From a virus (taxonomy: Duplodnaviria > Caudoviricetes): a stretch of 45,620 bases of DNA. The DNA lies in IMG/VR virus record IMGVR_UViG_3300025429_000002, positions 1-45,620 of that record; one strand, given 5' to 3'. Below the pieces are notes generated by a model that made no database searches, was not told where the DNA came from, and saw only the letters and a list, made by a program, of their open reading frames with translations. Shown here piece by piece: positions 13,712 through 39,802 of the stretch (position 1 is the stretch's first letter; every line of letters starts with the position of its first letter). A program made the translations under genes and the position numbers.

Positions 13712-14083
13712 TTATTCCTTAATATTTGAAAAATTGCTTAAATAATCTATTGCTGTTTGTAATATATTTATATTATCTTTAAATTTACCAAGTCCATGAT
13801 TGCAATGTGTACAAAGTAACCCTCTAACTTTTTTAGTAACATGACAGTGATCTACAGCTAATTGGCGAATGTTTCCACTTCTTTTATCAATAGCTGTTTC
13901 TGGCTGTTTACAGATAGCACATAGACCTTTTTGATTTTCAAACATTTGTTTAAATTCATCACGTGTAATACCGTATCTATAAACTAATTGCCATTCATTA
14001 TCGTACTGTTTTCGTTTTTCTTTGTTTTTTTCGTACCATTTTTTCCATTGAGCTGCTGCTTTAATTTTGTCACGAGTAGACAT
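13712..14083 (-). CDS. Endonuclease VII-family HNH nuclease, probable homing endonuclease
   Basis: YGIT..Q.GLCAIC..LAVDHCH..VRGLLC..CN.GLG.FKD; ATG at 14083 preferred over TTG at 14110. Confidence 0.88.
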   Translation of the reverse strand: MSTRDKIKAAAQWKKWYEKNKEKRKQYDNEWQLVYRYGITRDEFKQMFENQKGLCAICKQPETAIDKRSGNIRQLAVDHCHVTKKVRGLLCTHCNHGLGKFKDNINILQTAIDYLSNFSNIKE

Positions 14084-14084
14084 A

Positions 14085-14912
14085 TTAATCCCAATCGTAA
14101 TCCGCAACATACTGCTCTCTAGTCATCAACCCTTGTTTTGTGAATCGGTCACATGCTGCTTTTGCTTCAGGTGGCAAACTGTTGTAAGACTTCTTACCAC
14201 CAGTTACCGGTCTTGTGTTTGTACTAGATGTACCTTCCATTGGATTTGGTGTCTTTTTCTTACCAAACTTTTCAGGAATCATTTCAGCTAGTTCTTCATC
14301 TAATTTCTTTAAGAAAGCTTCACCGATTAGGGAAGGATTCTCACGACGAAGTTCAACTCCAAGGCTGTTAGCTACTGCAGTCATTTTTGTATCTTTACCA
14401 AACCAGTCGTTACGGTCAATCCATGCGTTAAGCATTGGGTCTTCTGTAATCTGTGGCGTAGCCTTAGCTGCTTCTTCTGCTTTTTTAACTTCTGCCTTTG
14501 CTTCAAGACGCTCTTCTTTAATAGCATCCATTGCATCGTCAATCGCTAAAACTCGATCACCGTCACCAGTGTTGATTGCATCACGTTTAGCCATTTTCAA
14601 TTGTTCTAGTTGAGTTTCAAGATCTTTACTCTTACGCTCATACTGTTCTTTTTGAAACTGTTTAAACTCTAGTGCAGCTTCACGAGCCTCATTAGCAGCT
14701 TTTTTTGCTTCAGCTAATTCTTTAAGCAATTTCTCATTGTTCTTACGTAAGATTGGCATAATCTCTCTACCACGACGTACAAACGTCTCAGCATCAACCC
14801 AATCATTCTCAGAACCTCTAAAATCATCCTTTGGTACCCAACCTTGTGCTTTCGCTTCGGATTCGTACTCAGGAGCTTCTTGCTGTTGCTCTACTACCTG
14901 TTCATCGCTCAT
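14085..14912 (-). CDS. Capsid scaffolding protein
   Basis: E/K/A-rich coiled coil, W..RN.WF motif, between portal and capsid genes. Confidence 0.75.
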   Translation of the reverse strand: MSDEQVVEQQQEAPEYESEAKAQGWVPKDDFRGSENDWVDAETFVRRGREIMPILRKNNEKLLKELAEAKKAANEAREAALEFKQFQKEQYERKSKDLETQLEQLKMAKRDAINTGDGDRVLAIDDAMDAIKEERLEAKAEVKKAEEAAKATPQITEDPMLNAWIDRNDWFGKDTKMTAVANSLGVELRRENPSLIGEAFLKKLDEELAEMIPEKFGKKKTPNPMEGTSSTNTRPVTGGKKSYNSLPPEAKAACDRFTKQGLMTREQYVADYDWD

Positions 14913-17528: not shown

Positions 17529-19046
17529 CTAGTATCCGGTTGTTCCGTTTCGACCTATTTCGTCGTATCCATATTCATGTAAGGCAAACCTGTACTCTTC
17601 GTCCTCTAGTTCTTTTGGTGTAGCTGCTTCCATCATTTTGTCGATCATCAAACCTATATAAGCCCAGGCGTCAACCTGATCATCATGACGGTCACGAGGA
17701 AACCTCAACAGCTCATCCTTAAACACTTGGAACCAATCGCTATGTGTATCAAACTTTACACCACCCGCTCTCATTCGTGCTTGCATACTACGTGCTCTAC
17801 TTAGTTTATCTCCGCTAGGCTTAAGCAGAATTAAATTAACAAAAACACCAGTTTTAAGCATCGCTTCTTTTAAGTAGGGTCCGATACTCTTTTCAATTGT
17901 TCCAACTTCAAGGCCGAAGAGTTCTGGTTCGTAAGTTCGCTGTAACGCTAAAATGGTATCAACAATCTGTTTAGCATCCATCCTATCACGGATTACGTTT
18001 ACGCATTGCAAACGATTCTGATCGTCCATTCCAGCTACAGCGAATACAGTATAATCACTATGTTGCCTTTGACTAATCGCTAAGTCAGCAGCAATATAAT
18101 AATTCAATTTTACTTTTCTATCTTCATCTTTAAGTGGTACAAAATCACTGTCTTTAAAGAATCCATTTGCATCATCAAGAGGAATATTCAACATCTCCTG
18201 ACTATACGCATCAGCAAGACCTTGCATGATGTATTGGTTCTTACGCTCTATTAGAGACTGCTTATTCCATCTGTCTGGCCATAAGATGCTATTAAAGTCA
18301 TCTGTATGGGCACGGTACTTAATTGATGTCCAAGGTGTCTTATAACTTGTAAACTGTTTTAAATCTTGTGTGATTAAGTGTTTAAGACCTTTAGAACCTA
18401 ATGCAGCAAGTTGTGACTCAGGCATTAATCGTTCTAAGAGTGAGTCTAAGTGTAAGATGGTACCTACGATTCTAATCTTACCGGTCACTGACAAACAAGG
18501 TATCAATGCTGAGTAGAACCACCTACGAAACTTCTCACGTCTTTCTTTATTCAGAACCTGTTCATCAGATTCCATATCATCACAGATAATTAAATCAGGT
18601 CTTCGGTTTAACCATTTAAGACCACGAAGCTTTTGTTCTGAACCTTTAGCTTGGATACGAAAAACAAATCCATCACTGAATTTACATATTATATCATCTT
18701 CTGTAGACTTTGTAAACTCTATGTCACCAAATAATCCATGTATGTCTTCGTTATCTCTTAACTCTTTAATTACATCACCCAAGAACAATCCAGCTTGAGA
18801 AAATGAATCTGAGACAATTAACACATAACGAGACTTACGAAACAACACCTCAGCTAACAAATACGCATACGTTACTGCTGTAGACTTACCATGTCCACGT
18901 GGTGCCGCTATAGCAACAAACTTATCCTGGTGGCAACAGTAACGCCACAACTCACGATGGAACTCAGGAGTCTCTGTAGCTTGGTCATAGTTCTTGACAA
19001 GACAGGCATTACTGAATCCTTCGATAACATCACTGGTTAATTCCAT
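17529..19046 (-). CDS. terL: Terminase large subunit
   Basis: Walker A APRGHGKST, Walker B IICDD, nuclease motifs AADLA and HDDQVDA. Confidence 0.95.
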   Translation of the reverse strand: MELTSDVIEGFSNACLVKNYDQATETPEFHRELWRYCCHQDKFVAIAAPRGHGKSTAVTYAYLLAEVLFRKSRYVLIVSDSFSQAGLFLGDVIKELRDNEDIHGLFGDIEFTKSTEDDIICKFSDGFVFRIQAKGSEQKLRGLKWLNRRPDLIICDDMESDEQVLNKERREKFRRWFYSALIPCLSVTGKIRIVGTILHLDSLLERLMPESQLAALGSKGLKHLITQDLKQFTSYKTPWTSIKYRAHTDDFNSILWPDRWNKQSLIERKNQYIMQGLADAYSQEMLNIPLDDANGFFKDSDFVPLKDEDRKVKLNYYIAADLAISQRQHSDYTVFAVAGMDDQNRLQCVNVIRDRMDAKQIVDTILALQRTYEPELFGLEVGTIEKSIGPYLKEAMLKTGVFVNLILLKPSGDKLSRARSMQARMRAGGVKFDTHSDWFQVFKDELLRFPRDRHDDQVDAWAYIGLMIDKMMEAATPKELEDEEYRFALHEYGYDEIGRNGTTGY

Positions 19047-19573
19047 TATATTTCTTCATGCTCTATAACCTTGGGCTTTGGTGTAACATCTTTAGCTTTA
19101 GCAAACCTAGCAAACTCATCTGCCAGTTTAGCAAGTCTGTCATCAACAGTCTTTTCAATTTGTTCTTGCATCGGTTGTTGGCGTAGTATTTCTCTACGAT
19201 CCATCAAGTCTGCAGTGGCCTTCATTGAATCTCTCAGGTTTACTGGAACTCGAACATTCCCACCTGTCTTTGGATCATATTGGAAGTTACCGTTGTCTAG
19301 TCTATCCTCCACCACAGCTAATGCTTTATTAACGATCTTACTGAGCCTACCGTCTAGTGCAAGTGTTTCTTCAGAACGTATCTGAAGCACCAACTCTTTC
19401 CACCAATCGGTATAACGCCATCTGACTATAGTGTCCTTCGGGATACCTGTCGCTGCTGCCGTCAATGGTAACGATCCAAGAGCCAGCCAAGTTGTCACTG
19501 CTTCGATCTTCTGAGCTTCGCTCCACCACTTCCCGCTTGCCTTTAAGTCTCTCTTTTTTCGTCTTCTTGGCAT
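19046..19573 (-). CDS. terS: Terminase small subunit
   Basis: N-terminal HTH (TAAATGIPKDTIVRW); overlaps the terL start. Confidence 0.75.
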   Translation of the reverse strand: MPRRRKKRDLKASGKWWSEAQKIEAVTTWLALGSLPLTAAATGIPKDTIVRWRYTDWWKELVLQIRSEETLALDGRLSKIVNKALAVVEDRLDNGNFQYDPKTGGNVRVPVNLRDSMKATADLMDRREILRQQPMQEQIEKTVDDRLAKLADEFARFAKAKDVTPKPKVIEHEEI

Positions 19574-19603: not shown

Positions 19604-19632
19604 ATTATATCATATAAGTTTAAATTTGTCAA
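19604..19632 (-). promoter_or_regulatory. Sigma70 promoter of the packaging/structural arm
   Basis: TTGACA-N17-TATAAT with TG extension; upstream AATAAT shared with the 11594-11622 promoter. Confidence 0.88.
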
Positions 19633-19665: not shown

Positions 19666-19694
19666 TTGACAAAAGATAAAAAATGTGCTATTAT
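19666..19694 (+). promoter_or_regulatory. Divergent sigma70 promoter facing the non-coding region
   Basis: TTGACA-N17-TATTAT with TGn extension. Confidence 0.75.
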
Positions 19695-19819: not shown

Positions 19820-20078
19820 GCTTCGTGCACATATTGTAATTATTTTAAAGTGTATTCACTATTCTTGAATAAAGAATGTCTCAGTGCTTCTCAGCACATC
19901 GTAGGCTACCCTACCCTCAACTTGTAATTTAAAATCAATACAGAGCTGTTTAGAGCCTCTGGTGAGCATTTTAGACCTGTCTAGACCCTACCCCCTATTC
20001 TAAAAATTATGCCAGCGTTAAAAATAGCGTTATATATATTTATAAAGAATTCTTTTTGCCCCTCCCCAGCCCTAGTTA

Positions 20079-20326
20079 GTAAGCACTTACTTCCTATACA
20101 GGTTAGTGAGTACTTACTTACATCTATACAGGCGAAGTGAACACTCACTTACTTAGTAGTGACTCTGTCCCTTATACTTGTTAGTGTGTCCTTACTTACT
20201 AGGCTACTCTGTCCCTGCACCATGTCAGTGCATATTACTAAAAGTTATATAAGTTGTTGTTTTTAGACAACAAAGTAGTAAGGCGTAACGCAACCGTATA
20301 AAATCAATAAGTTAGCATGCACTTAC
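20079..20326. promoter_or_regulatory. Cluster of five SlmA-binding-site-like 12-mers
   Basis: GTAAGCACTTAC 20079, GTGAGTACTTAC 20106, GTGAACACTCAC 20137, GTGTGTCCTTAC 20184, GCATGCACTTAC 20315; E. coli SBS consensus is GTGAGTACTCAC. Confidence 0.6.
20302..20314 (+). promoter_or_regulatory. IHF binding site
   Basis: AATCAATAAGTTA matches WATCAANNNNTTR exactly. Confidence 0.55.
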
Positions 20327-20349
20327 ACTACACCATTTAACTATCTAAA

Positions 20350-20421
20350 TGATAATGATTCTCACTTGTATTTGATTAGTTATTGAGAATGATTCTCACT
20401 TGTAAACGATAACGATTCTCA
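20350..20421. promoter_or_regulatory. Three Fur boxes
   Basis: TGATAATGATTCTCA 20350, TGAGAATGATTCTCA 20384, CGATAACGATTCTCA 20407; fit the 7-1-7 consensus TGATAATnATTATCA. Confidence 0.75.
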
Positions 20422-20524
20422 TTTAAAGCACTGTTGTATTTTGACAACATAGGGTTTGTCCCTATAGTTTTTTTGTTGCATATCTATAAAATAGAATCAT
20501 CAACACAAAAAAGGAGCTTTAAAA

Positions 20525-20693: not shown

Positions 20694-21413
20694 ATGTTTA
20701 TTAGAAAACAATTACTAGGTTTTAACACCAACGCTAAAACAATCAAAGGAGAAAAGATCGGTTATTATACCGGCATTCTATATCTTGCTCCAAGTGATAT
20801 CTCCGGCTTTCAAGTATGCCCCTTAGCTAAATTGGCACAATGTGAGAAAGCCTGTTTATATACATCGGGAAGAGGGGCGTTTAATTCTATCCAACATGCT
20901 AGAATTGAGAAAACAAAATACTTTTTTAATGATCGTAACAATTTTATGATCAATATCTTTAAAGATATTGAAAAGGGTATTAAGAAAGCTAAACAATTAA
21001 ATCAAGAGTTATTGATTAGATTAAATGGTACAAGTGATATTAAATGGGAAAATGTATCATTTGAATATAACGGGATCACTTATGACAATATTATGAGTGC
21101 ATTTCCTACTGTTCAATTTTATGATTATACTAAAATACCGAATAGGGTTAACTTACCGAAAAATTATGATTTAACATTCTCTTATTCTGGCGTTATTAGT
21201 TTTCAAAAGTACGTTACAAAAGCAATTGAGAATAAAAACCGTATCGCTGTTGTTTTTAGGTATGAGAGAGACATTCCTAAAATGTTCAAGGGTTTAAATG
21301 TAATCGGAGGAGATAATTCAGACGTGCGGCATATTGAGGATAAAAATATTATTGTCGCATTGTATGCTAAGGGTAAAGCTATCAAGGATACTTCCGGCTT
21401 TGTTGTCAATTAA
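20694..21413 (+). CDS. GP88-family protein (three-Cys, Fe-S/radical-SAM-like)
   Basis: VCP....C...CLYTSGRG, IRLNGTSD, QFYDYTK, LTFSYS motifs. Confidence 0.75.
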   Translation: MFIRKQLLGFNTNAKTIKGEKIGYYTGILYLAPSDISGFQVCPLAKLAQCEKACLYTSGRGAFNSIQHARIEKTKYFFNDRNNFMINIFKDIEKGIKKAKQLNQELLIRLNGTSDIKWENVSFEYNGITYDNIMSAFPTVQFYDYTKIPNRVNLPKNYDLTFSYSGVISFQKYVTKAIENKNRIAVVFRYERDIPKMFKGLNVIGGDNSDVRHIEDKNIIVALYAKGKAIKDTSGFVVN

Positions 21414-38074: not shown

Positions 38075-38472
38075 ACAATAGAAGTTATAATCCCGTTAAC
38101 TACAGTAATTGTTTTTGGTGTTGTATCACCAGATAAAAATGAACCAGTAGTACCTTTGTTTTGTGTAACAATAGTACCTAATCCAGTTACATTGGTATAT
38201 GGAATAGAACTACCTGTTAAATTAACTCCAGATATGGTTCCACCAGTGATAGAAACAGTACTAGAATTTTCTACAGCCATTGTACCAAGCCCTAAGTTCT
38301 GCCTAGCCCCTTGTGCATTATTAGCACCAGTACCACCTTGTAAGATAGTCCACACAGTGTTACCTACTTGTGCAGCTTGGATGTAACTACCTAAGTTACG
38401 AAACCATTCTCTCCACCGAGGATTCTCTTTAATCTCATCTTGAGGTATTGGAGGTAAGTTATTAACAGCCAA
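38071..38472 (-). CDS. Tail needle/plug-like protein (P22 gp26 role)
   Basis: LPP.P..PRWREWF start, GGTGA..AR.NLGLGTMA repeat, ITVVNGIITSI tip; TTG at 38472 has a GGAG RBS. Confidence 0.55.
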   Translation of the reverse strand: MAVNNLPPIPQDEIKENPRWREWFRNLGSYIQAAQVGNTVWTILQGGTGANNAQGARQNLGLGTMAVENSSTVSITGGTISGVNLTGSSIPYTNVTGLGTIVTQNKGTTGSFLSGDTTPKTITVVNGIITSIV

Positions 38473-39802
38473 TCTCAACTCCTAATCCGTAACCATAGCT
38501 TTGTAGTTCATCAAGTTTCTTTTGTACCTTCTCACCAATGTCAGTACGATAAGCAATGCTATTAGGAATACAAATCTTTTTCTTAATCTTACCGTAAACA
38601 GACTCACGAGCAAGTTCAATATCATCCCCAAGCCCTACAACGGTACATACATAATCACCGGCAGTAACAAACATGGGTACATTCTCTTTGATCTCACCGT
38701 CTTCCATTGCAGGGCCTTTGCCCCACTGTACTTCACAAAGGTGTACATCTTTAACAGCATCTTCTAATGTTAGACCCCACATAGGATAGCCAGAACATTC
38801 TTTCTTAGGTTTAGTACAGTAAGGGTAATCAGGTAAACTAATTACAACACCACATGCTACTTTGTCTGATACTTTAAGTGTATCTTTACCATCTAATAAG
38901 TCAAGCATCCACTGTGCAGGATCACCTTTGTGTAAAGACAATTGAATGTTAAATAAAGGCCATCCTGGACGCATAGTAAACTCTAACGGCCATGCTTGAC
39001 CCTTCTTATCCACGATACAGTTTACATCGATGTAGCCTGTATAGCCTAAACCGTGAAGCATATCTTCTAACGGTCTTAACATCTCATCAGCAAGCTTAGA
39101 GTTATCTGTGTAGCGGACAATAGTGCCTTGCTCACCGGTAGTGACACCTAACTCACCGTCCATGAGCTTCTTGTGTTCCCAAGACTCTGAGAAGTATCTA
39201 TTAAACCCACCAGGACCAAACCAACCACCAACACCGAACTCAATACCAGGTCTAAACTCTTGCAGAATAAACTCTTCGCCCTTATGAGCATTTGTTTTCT
39301 TCCACTTGTTTAACATATAGACTAGATCAGCAGGTGAGCTTGGTACATAGGATAATGTCTTGTCACCGTCACCAATAGGCTTACTAACATACATACGGCC
39401 AGTATCTTTAACGTACTTAATAGCTTCATCATAGTTATTAAAGGTCTGGCTTGGAATAGTCTCAATGCCAGCTTTCTTCATAATCATCTCACCATGATCA
39501 CGTTGCTGTTCCCACCGATTAGTATCGATAGAAGGGCCTAAGATAGGATAGCCCTTATCTCTGTACCGTTCTAAGCCGTGAATGTAATAGATGTTATCTG
39601 TACAGAATATAAGGTCAGCCCAATCCATATGGTCTTCCCAGTTACTAACACGCTTTACTAAGCCACCATCACCAACTTCACTTCTTGAACCGTCTTTATT
39701 GTGACGAATAAACATCTTAACTTCATGGTCATAGTGTTGACTACGGAGTGCAAAAGACAAACCACAACCACATCCTGATGGATCTATAATTAATATTTTC
39801 AT
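38462..39802 (-). CDS. PurD/GARS-like ATP-grasp ligase
   Basis: ILGPS..E..R, YVSKP, ILQEF..G.E, EHKKL..G..TGEQG, PLEFTMRPGWP, YRTDIG. Confidence 0.85.
   Translation of the reverse strand: MKILIIDPSGCGCGLSFALRSQHYDHEVKMFIRHNKDGSRSEVGDGGLVKRVSNWEDHMDWADLIFCTDNIYYIHGLERYRDKGYPILGPSIDTNRWEQQRDHGEMIMKKAGIETIPSQTFNNYDEAIKYVKDTGRMYVSKPIGDGDKTLSYVPSSPADLVYMLNKWKKTNAHKGEEFILQEFRPGIEFGVGGWFGPGGFNRYFSESWEHKKLMDGELGVTTGEQGTIVRYTDNSKLADEMLRPLEDMLHGLGYTGYIDVNCIVDKKGQAWPLEFTMRPGWPLFNIQLSLHKGDPAQWMLDLLDGKDTLKVSDKVACGVVISLPDYPYCTKPKKECSGYPMWGLTLEDAVKDVHLCEVQWGKGPAMEDGEIKENVPMFVTAGDYVCTVVGLGDDIELARESVYGKIKKKICIPNSIAYRTDIGEKVQKKLDELQSYGYGLGVEIGC

Follow-up and report, generated by a model that had tools for sequence, protein, structure and literature searches.

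SlmA-type operator boxes in a freshwater phage as a possible swappable module of a host-protein docking array beside a candidate terminase site

We analyzed a cluster of five SlmA-type operator boxes in the genome of a phage found in freshwater metagenomes, and our preferred, though tentative, reading is that the boxes are a swappable module of an array on which host proteins dock, at the end of the genome that is probably the first to enter the cell. To judge from the sequence, the array likely lies beside the packaging cut site, beyond a conserved block that ends in a T-run and a C-run. A docking array is the simplest account of the boxes because they stand strictly on one side of the C-run in unrelated phages and are exchanged among close relatives for operators that are unrelated to cell division.

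Results

The window, by which we mean the whole stretch of 45,620 nucleotides that was analyzed (IMG/VR record IMGVR_UViG_3300025429_000002), is a complete circular assembly of 45.5 kb with a 99-base end overlap, and its virus record is rated 100% complete. Contigs from three runs that carry no mark as possible sources of the record (X8, X9 and X12) cover the stretch with zero differences, indicating that it is not an assembly artefact. PHROG annotation of the genome identified a T7-like primase-helicase, a DNA polymerase, an exonuclease, a ribonucleotide reductase and a terL-portal-capsid arm; most of the small early ORFs had no family assignment. The box cluster sits in 950 bp without genes that separate the putative terS (19573, minus strand) from the early arm (20525, plus strand), and the features of this region are listed in Table 1. 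The putative TerS (175 aa) had no PHROG or Pfam match. A 55-aa ORF at 19981-20148 (minus strand) was rejected as a gene since it spans the variable zone, and a structured non-coding RNA was rejected on a fold z-score of -1.13 and 0 Rfam matches at E <= 0.1 for the stretch. Elsewhere, an Endonuclease VII-type gene (13712-14110, minus strand) is inserted in the head cluster, and a 446-aa ORF of the virion arm (38462-39802, minus strand), which had no PHROG or Pfam match at the thresholds used, reads like an ATP-grasp ligase when judged by eye. Additional ORFs are inserted around terS in the relatives L011, L014 and L015.

The nearest cultured relative was the Alcaligenes phage vB_Af_QDWS535 (TerL 53%, capsid 54%), which makes a Burkholderiales host likely. 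A search for the host with the capsid protein found matches in 3 of 401 genomes, with the best in G217. This slmA-positive MAG contains four contigs with capsid genes (L373 and L376-L378) that are 52-66% identical to the phage capsid; they are probably the result of co-binning and may serve as a hint of the host.

The five 12-mers described in the first-pass annotation were each found once, at 20079, 20106, 20137, 20184 and 20315, and the CTATACAGG spacers that it had placed between the first three boxes were located at 20094 and 20124. Copy 5 was present, but its register is better 4 bp to the left of the position first given (core 20311-20322). When a degenerate 20-mer (GTWAGTRAGYRCTYACTWAC) was scored over the whole genome, a comparison that the same annotation had proposed, the five best matches were these five boxes. 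Four sites had at most 3 mismatches where 0.11 were expected, and 0 of 100 shuffles reached four, although these mismatch counts are partly circular since the pattern was written after viewing the window. A single site with 4 mismatches, such as box 5, is at chance level when taken alone (simulated mean of 1.07 per genome). As an independent check we scored the published oligos SBS12, SBS17 and SBScons, as given in the available text of PMC4423959. The best genome-wide match of each oligo fell in the box cluster, and SBScons matched 16 of 20 positions at both 20133 and 20102. The core consensus of the SlmA-binding site (SBS) is GTGAGTACTCAC, according to the accessible part of PMC3116907. The boxes match this core and the extended consensus, copy 5 only weakly, and their flanks follow variants known from real E. 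coli SBS, so that the likeness to SlmA-type operators first proposed for the 12-mers extends to the flanks as well.

Table 1. Positions in the window of the boxes, other sequence elements and neighbouring genes
Feature	Position	Strand	Remark
Terminase large subunit	17529..19046	-	phrog_38, E 1.2e-77
Putative terminase small subunit	19046..19573	-	By position only; 175-aa ORF directly upstream of terL
Sigma70-type promoter facing terS	19604..19632	-	12/12 consensus match; putative function
Sigma70-type promoter facing conserved block and array	19666..19694	+	11/12 match
Conserved block ending in T-run and C-run	19984..20067	.	C-run at 20059-20067; candidate terminase site
SlmA-type box 1	20075..20094	.	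1 mismatch to 20-mer; LexA-like box instead in L007
CTATACAGG spacer	20094..20102	+	Looks like a LexA half-site remnant, on what we take to be the LexA consensus
SlmA-type box 2, best copy	20102..20121	.	0 mismatches; core 11/12 to GTGAGTACTCAC; 17/20 to SBS17
Second CTATACAGG spacer	20124..20132	+	
SlmA-type box 3	20133..20152	.	3 mismatches to 20-mer; 17/20 to E. coli SBS12
SlmA-type box 4	20180..20199	.	2 mismatches to 20-mer; 15/20 to SBS17
TGTTGT-N6-ACAACA palindrome	20255..20272	.	Exact; 0.33 expected at <=1 mismatch
IHF-consensus site	20302..20314	+	Exact WATCAANNNNTTR; not significant alone
SlmA-type box 5, weak	20307..20326	.	4 mismatches (3 in L007); overlaps IHF-like site
Three Fur-box-like 7-1-7 repeats	20350..20421	.	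At 20350, 20384 and 20407
Second TGTTGT-N6-ACAACA palindrome	20432..20449	.	Overlaps early promoter -35
Sigma70-type early promoter	20441..20468	+	11/12 match
GP88-family gene, first large early gene	20694..21413	+	PF17338, E 5e-40

The conserved block is, we infer, a candidate for the terminase recognition and cut site. Its anchor was present in 33 terL-seeded clade loci and was common to co-occurring relatives in other runs. In four relatives (L019, L021, L022 and L023) a CAGCGT-containing unit of the block occurs as three tandem 40-bp copies to the left of the C-run, which fits the unit being bound by a phage protein. A TTGACA element like that of the plus-strand promoter on the terminase side is visible in relatives, and this promoter fires toward the putative cut site in a way that we take to be reminiscent of T7 phiOR. 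Beyond the block, the labels IHF, Fur and LexA are given to array motifs on what we presume to be the consensus sequences of these proteins. The Fur-like triplet showed BLAST similarity to the terminal repeat of the T5-like phage Kenya-K20 and to phi92-like phages. The TGTTGT-N6-ACAACA palindrome reached up to 6 copies in the arrays of relatives; HexR was rejected as its regulator because the published spacing is N7/8 and because the sites in host genomes do not adjoin sugar-catabolism genes. A TAGGG-N5-CCCTA palindrome (20450-20464) occupies the spacer of the early promoter, and related boxes were found in 10 of 17 clade arrays, with little excess in host genomes. The array also holds a ACTCTGTCCC repeat at 20162-20171 and 20206-20215, and similar CTGTCCCC units recur in the arrays of relatives.

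We then considered which protein the boxes may bind. A scan of GTDB genomes identified the 20-mer in ~340 stretches from many phyla, and 85 of the 120 matches listed, out of the ~340, had a TetR-type HTH within 300 bp, as judged by a profile built from 38 strict-pattern hits among these 120 (a first pattern gave 25). The HTHs near the 20-mer carry the helix VSEAxL[YF]xHF, which is also found in Burkholderiales SlmA (VSEAALYRHF). The motif was not specific for SlmA; since the same 20-mer stands beside many TetR genes, including non-SlmA genes in many phyla, it is an operator of a TetR subfamily. The HTH profile detected no TetR-type HTH in this phage or in 202 viral loci, suggesting that the binding partner should be a host protein. 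Since 111 of the 151 genomes in the order to which G002 (Aquitalea) belongs have an slmA that scores over the NF007015 cut-off (110 of 150 without the unpublished G181), SlmA is the best single candidate, and sequence comparison points to host SlmA as the most likely partner of the boxes. As to the presence of slmA in the host, on which the first-pass annotation had made its proposal depend, the host is predicted from the nearest cultured relative and the gene is common in its probable order.

In the order of G001, 0 of 151 genomes scored over the slmA cut-off; the top hits resemble genes of another phylum, so this search says nothing on Burkholderiales. Across 80 Burkholderiales genomes, strict SBS 12-mers were no more frequent than the control (84 versus about 128); one small genus had an excess (22 versus 4) and another had little (60 versus 42). 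The strict pattern is insensitive, as it gave 3 versus 0 in an Enterobacteriaceae MAG, and when the family of G204 was scanned with an SBS 14-mer, a pattern too strict to inform, the outcome was 7/33. In the small Burkholderiales genomes G258 (C1, 211-496 kb) and G204 (C2) the strict 12-mers clustered in one part, as would be expected of nucleoid-occlusion sites.

The motif extends well beyond this phage. An 18-mer form, GTTAGTRAGYRCTYACTT, occurred in about 770 IMG/VR stretches. The 120 matches listed, which came from 10 of the 64 IMG/VR parts, yielded at least 89 non-redundant loci with 4 in an open frame, while a reversed-pattern control yielded 62 loci from 49 parts, of which 9 were non-redundant and 6 of these in an open frame. 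The box motif is real, non-random and widespread in phages. Among the matches listed, 80 loci had flanks and 65 of these were non-redundant; their ORFs of at least 200 aa were scanned (72 in Pfam and 31 in PHROGs), some loci having none. A terminase gene was identified within 2.5 kb in 44 of these 65 loci among the matches listed, and the motif lay upstream of it in 41 of the 44. In 33 of these 41 unrelated loci, again among the matches listed, a C-run separated the motif from the terminase gene. The boxes in the 33 loci were distal to the C-run in 112 cases and proximal to it in 0, with 33 of the 112 being the seeds of the search, and in most loci the array began ~10-100 bp from the C-run. 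When 10 whole records were scanned, 20 of 23 strict sites fell in the one cluster, 10 of the sites being seeds. Several TerL families and at least three unrelated families at the TerS position accompany the motif, with no other ORF in common. A GP88-family gene was near the motif in 6 of the scanned motif-seeded loci too.

The mixed array of the window is not universal, since IHF and Fur sites were each found in only 1 of the 33 unrelated arrays with SlmA boxes. DnaA, LexA and NtrC-like boxes occurred in 4-5 of the 33 (DnaA in 5), and arrays with SlmA boxes only were common outside the clade. BLAST of the box clusters against cultured phages gave matches at chance level only, the records of the Caulobacter RW, CRP-901, HTVC027P and Ralstonia phages contained no mapped end with the array layout, and the L264-type TerL had no match at 1e-50. 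No description of SlmA boxes at phage ends was found in titles and abstract openings, a set that leaves most subscription literature outside.

Close relatives were collected by a TerL search that gave 80 loci, to which 2 annotated records were added, and 71 loci extended far enough upstream for scanning. In 3 of the 71 (L007, L043 and L054) the scan found a site that differs from the core at 2 positions or fewer, several of the loci ending before the array. Beyond the conserved block the clade DNA is hypervariable. For motif counts we used 17 non-redundant complete clade arrays, the window included. The SlmA core at <=1 mismatch gave 4 sites in 2 of the 17 arrays (shuffle mean 0.15), and the remaining 15 had no such box, so that in the related phages, where the first-pass annotation had proposed to test conservation, the box is mostly absent. 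The IHF consensus gave 12 sites in 11 of the 17 (shuffle mean 0.62) and the Fur-like repeat 9 sites in 5 (0.03); LexA boxes were not enriched in the clade arrays, with 1 site in 1 of 17 against a shuffle mean of 0.75. Among the patterns that were read off the arrays themselves, which are all those other than IHF, Fur and LexA, TGTKGT-N6-ACMACA gave 20 sites in 5 of the 17 arrays (shuffle mean 0.10), TTTCAYANTRTGAAA gave 23 sites in 8 (0.23) and the TAGGG box 15 sites in 10 (0.50). The IHF, Fur-like, TGTKGT-N6-ACMACA and TTTCAYANTRTGAAA motifs were absent upstream of the conserved block in these arrays. TTTCAYANTRTGAAA fits the IclR group-1 consensus given in the available part of PMC8222616, for which there were 26 sites against 3.4.

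The arrays are exchanged between phages that are otherwise nearly alike. L017 and L018 have identical TerL proteins and different arrays, and in 16 pairs whose TerS are 95-99% identical, at most 4% of the array 14-mers were in common. The relative L007 has a TerS 100% identical to that of the window; its DNA identity falls from 99% on the left of the C-run to 63% over the zone of boxes 1-4 and rises to 95% after that zone. In L007 box 1 is replaced by a LexA-like CTGT-N8-ACAG box, box 2 is identical and the remaining boxes are still SBS-like. The retention in L007 together with the replacement in relatives suggests that selection keeps the boxes in this lineage and that the clade as a whole can do without them. 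The Alcaligenes phage vB_Af_QDWS535 and the phage DSL-LC05 have the same C-run followed by other repeat arrays without SlmA boxes. In DSL-LC05 (L394:1000-1480) the T-run/C-run is followed by many copies of a TGACCCAGTGGGTCA-type palindrome, and beyond the C-run vB_Af_QDWS535 has repeated TGTCCCCA units and a palindrome (L086:9940-9955) that is parS-like on what we take to be the parS consensus. The contigs of 5 clade loci end 290-461 bp beyond the C-run, which assembly breaks in variable DNA would explain equally well. Assembled contig depth (X7, X8 and X12) was higher to the left of about 20260-20330, although contig depth cannot show ends.

Discussion

How could such an array work? If the conserved block is the terminase site, packaging would start there and run toward terS, a direction assumed by analogy with lambda and T7. 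The array would then be the last part of the genome to be packaged and the first to leave the capsid, with the early genes following it. Host SlmA, IHF, Fur and other abundant proteins could bind the array as it emerges in the cell, and the bound coat may grip, anchor or shield the free end, acting as an entry ratchet, as a membrane tether or as protection against end-loading nucleases. Any abundant host protein that binds tightly would suffice for this, which would explain why arrays are swapped. In lineages with SlmA boxes, the many copies made by replication might also inhibit FtsZ, as a side effect or as a second benefit. SlmA binds membranes and, together with FtsZ, brings SBS DNA there, as described in the accessible part of PMC7468209.

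A wider claim can be made, which we regard as doubtful at present: that convergence in many unrelated freshwater phages has produced a protein-free end module, in which host operators are arrayed next to the terminase site and can be swapped, and which in hundreds of phages is built of SlmA boxes, so that SlmA would grip the entering end and the replicating genomes would then act as a division inhibitor made of DNA only. How the last part of the phage DNA enters the cell and how the free end is protected are long-standing questions, and SlmA-, IHF-, Fur- and IclR-type boxes that interchange at a fixed position form a natural series with which to test the idea of an end grip or shield. If the SlmA version also arrests division, a host-takeover function would reside in non-coding DNA. 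The boxes may also help in assigning hosts and ends to uncultured phages.

The first-pass annotation had put forward a division block, in which the boxes were selected to recruit and activate host SlmA on replicating genomes, with FtsZ inhibited and septation blocked by DNA alone. We consider this unlikely. The underlying observation that the boxes resemble SlmA operators stood, but as the main purpose a division block fits poorly with boxes that are swapped by relatives and are one-sided at the C-run. Four good sites resemble real SBS variants, slmA is common in the probable host order (111 of 151 genomes), with the same VSEAALYRHF helix, the boxes were kept through sequence turnover in L007, and the motif is found in about 770 phage stretches, with SlmA-only arrays common outside the clade. 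That multicopy SBS can block division, as had been stated at the outset, agrees with the available text of PMC3573117, in which a plasmid with two tandem SBS (pUC-2xSBS) caused a lethal, SlmA-dependent division block in E. coli, although this assay relied on SlmA induced to about 4x the native level. On the other hand, 15 of 17 clade arrays lack a box at <=1 mismatch, a site within 2 mismatches was seen in just 3 of the 71 terL-seeded loci (some of which end before the array), and the operators that replace the boxes in relatives have no known link to division. A division block needs many SBS anywhere in the genome and does not require the polarity of 112 to 0 about the C-run; in addition, the motif is common to many non-SlmA TetR regulators, and a chromosomal excess of SBS was found only in one small genus (22 versus 4). 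A role in division block and one in docking at the end are not mutually exclusive.

The array could also serve transcriptional control, with host regulators tuning the early promoter or blocking read-through from the promoter at 19666, and so coupling infection to iron, DNA damage or growth state; the boxes nearest the promoter may be no more than regulatory sites. A TGTTGT box overlaps the early -35, Fur-like boxes lie 20-90 bp upstream of the same promoter, and TAGGG boxes recur downstream among the early genes of relatives (10 hits). We nevertheless find it decidedly unlikely, given that boxes 1-4 stand 240-365 bp from the early promoter, that functionally unrelated regulons swap freely, and that the boxes hug the C-run and not a promoter. 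In E. coli, SBS placed upstream of a promoter left lacZ unperturbed, according to the accessible part of PMC3573117. A role in DNA maturation, which we hold to be quite improbable, would have array-bound host proteins point terminase to its closing cut by blocking its path or bending the DNA, or else cap the end of the concatemer left by the cut. Such a role has an analogy in IHF at lambda cos; moreover, in most loci the array and the C-run are only about 10-100 bp apart, and a single IHF-like site is an almost constant feature of the clade arrays. Against it, the array changes without constraint in phages whose TerS, TerL and conserved block do not. Very improbable, in our estimate, is a coincidental likeness to SBS in repeats that serve as origin iterons or as binding sites for TerS or another phage protein. 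The cluster does adjoin terS, and the window TerS is ~58% identical to the TerS of box-less relatives, so a changed specificity is possible; the cumulative GC skew turns at 20-21 kb, but the coding strand switches at the same place. Phages with this motif have at least three unrelated families at the TerS position and several TerL families, the flanks match published SBS variants, and neither the window nor the 202 viral loci encode a TetR-type HTH. TerS and the repeats did not co-vary, with near-identical TerS occurring beside unrelated arrays and the same motif beside unrelated TerS, and binding of the boxes by TerS thus appears unlikely. The docking array remains the reading that we prefer.

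Comparison with known systems

The phage boxes are like E. coli SBS in their 12-bp core and in the extended 20-bp palindrome (available parts of PMC3116907, PMC3573117 and PMC4423959). The chromosomal SBS of E. coli are described there as dispersed, for the most part within coding sequence, and missing from Ter, whereas the phage boxes form one non-coding cluster that is one-sided to the putative terminase site and interchangeable with other operators.

A closer parallel in layout is the injection-stop (iss) region of T5, for which arrays of DnaA boxes have been proposed in silico (bioRxiv 10.1101/866236, as far as its accessible text goes). Both regions combine non-coding repeats with predicted boxes for host proteins, in T5 in the part of the genome that enters early and in the present phage at the end that probably does so. 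The T5 iss, however, lies about 9-10 kb inside a 10-kb terminal repeat, has a conserved order of DnaA boxes and belongs to a two-step injection, whereas the phage array is about 400 bp long, abuts the putative cut site, is hypervariable, with order and content that vary within the clade, and includes SlmA-type boxes. It also adjoins the terminase genes, between divergent arms. The available text of the T5 preprint names neither SlmA, Fur nor LexA. The Kenya-K20 counterpart of the iss region matches the Fur-like triplet of the phage. On what we take to be the LexA and Fur consensus sequences, the terminal repeat of Kenya-K20, a Salmonella phage, has a perfect LexA-type box (L371:1291-1306) among DnaA boxes, and its iss-type region, at about 1060-1600, has several Fur-box-like repeats among DnaA boxes.

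The operators of TetR regulators with the VSEAxL[YF]xHF helix share the same 20-mer with the phage boxes; unlike these operators, the boxes have no adjoining TetR gene, occur in several copies and are not at a promoter. Phage ends are also known to carry fixed signals for phage proteins, as in lambda cosB with IHF and in the end repeats of T7 with phiOR and CJ. The phage array resembles these elements in having non-coding signals, a putative site for a host bending protein by the candidate cut site and a predicted promoter directed toward the junction, but differs from them in being built of swappable operators of the host type instead of fixed signals for phage proteins.
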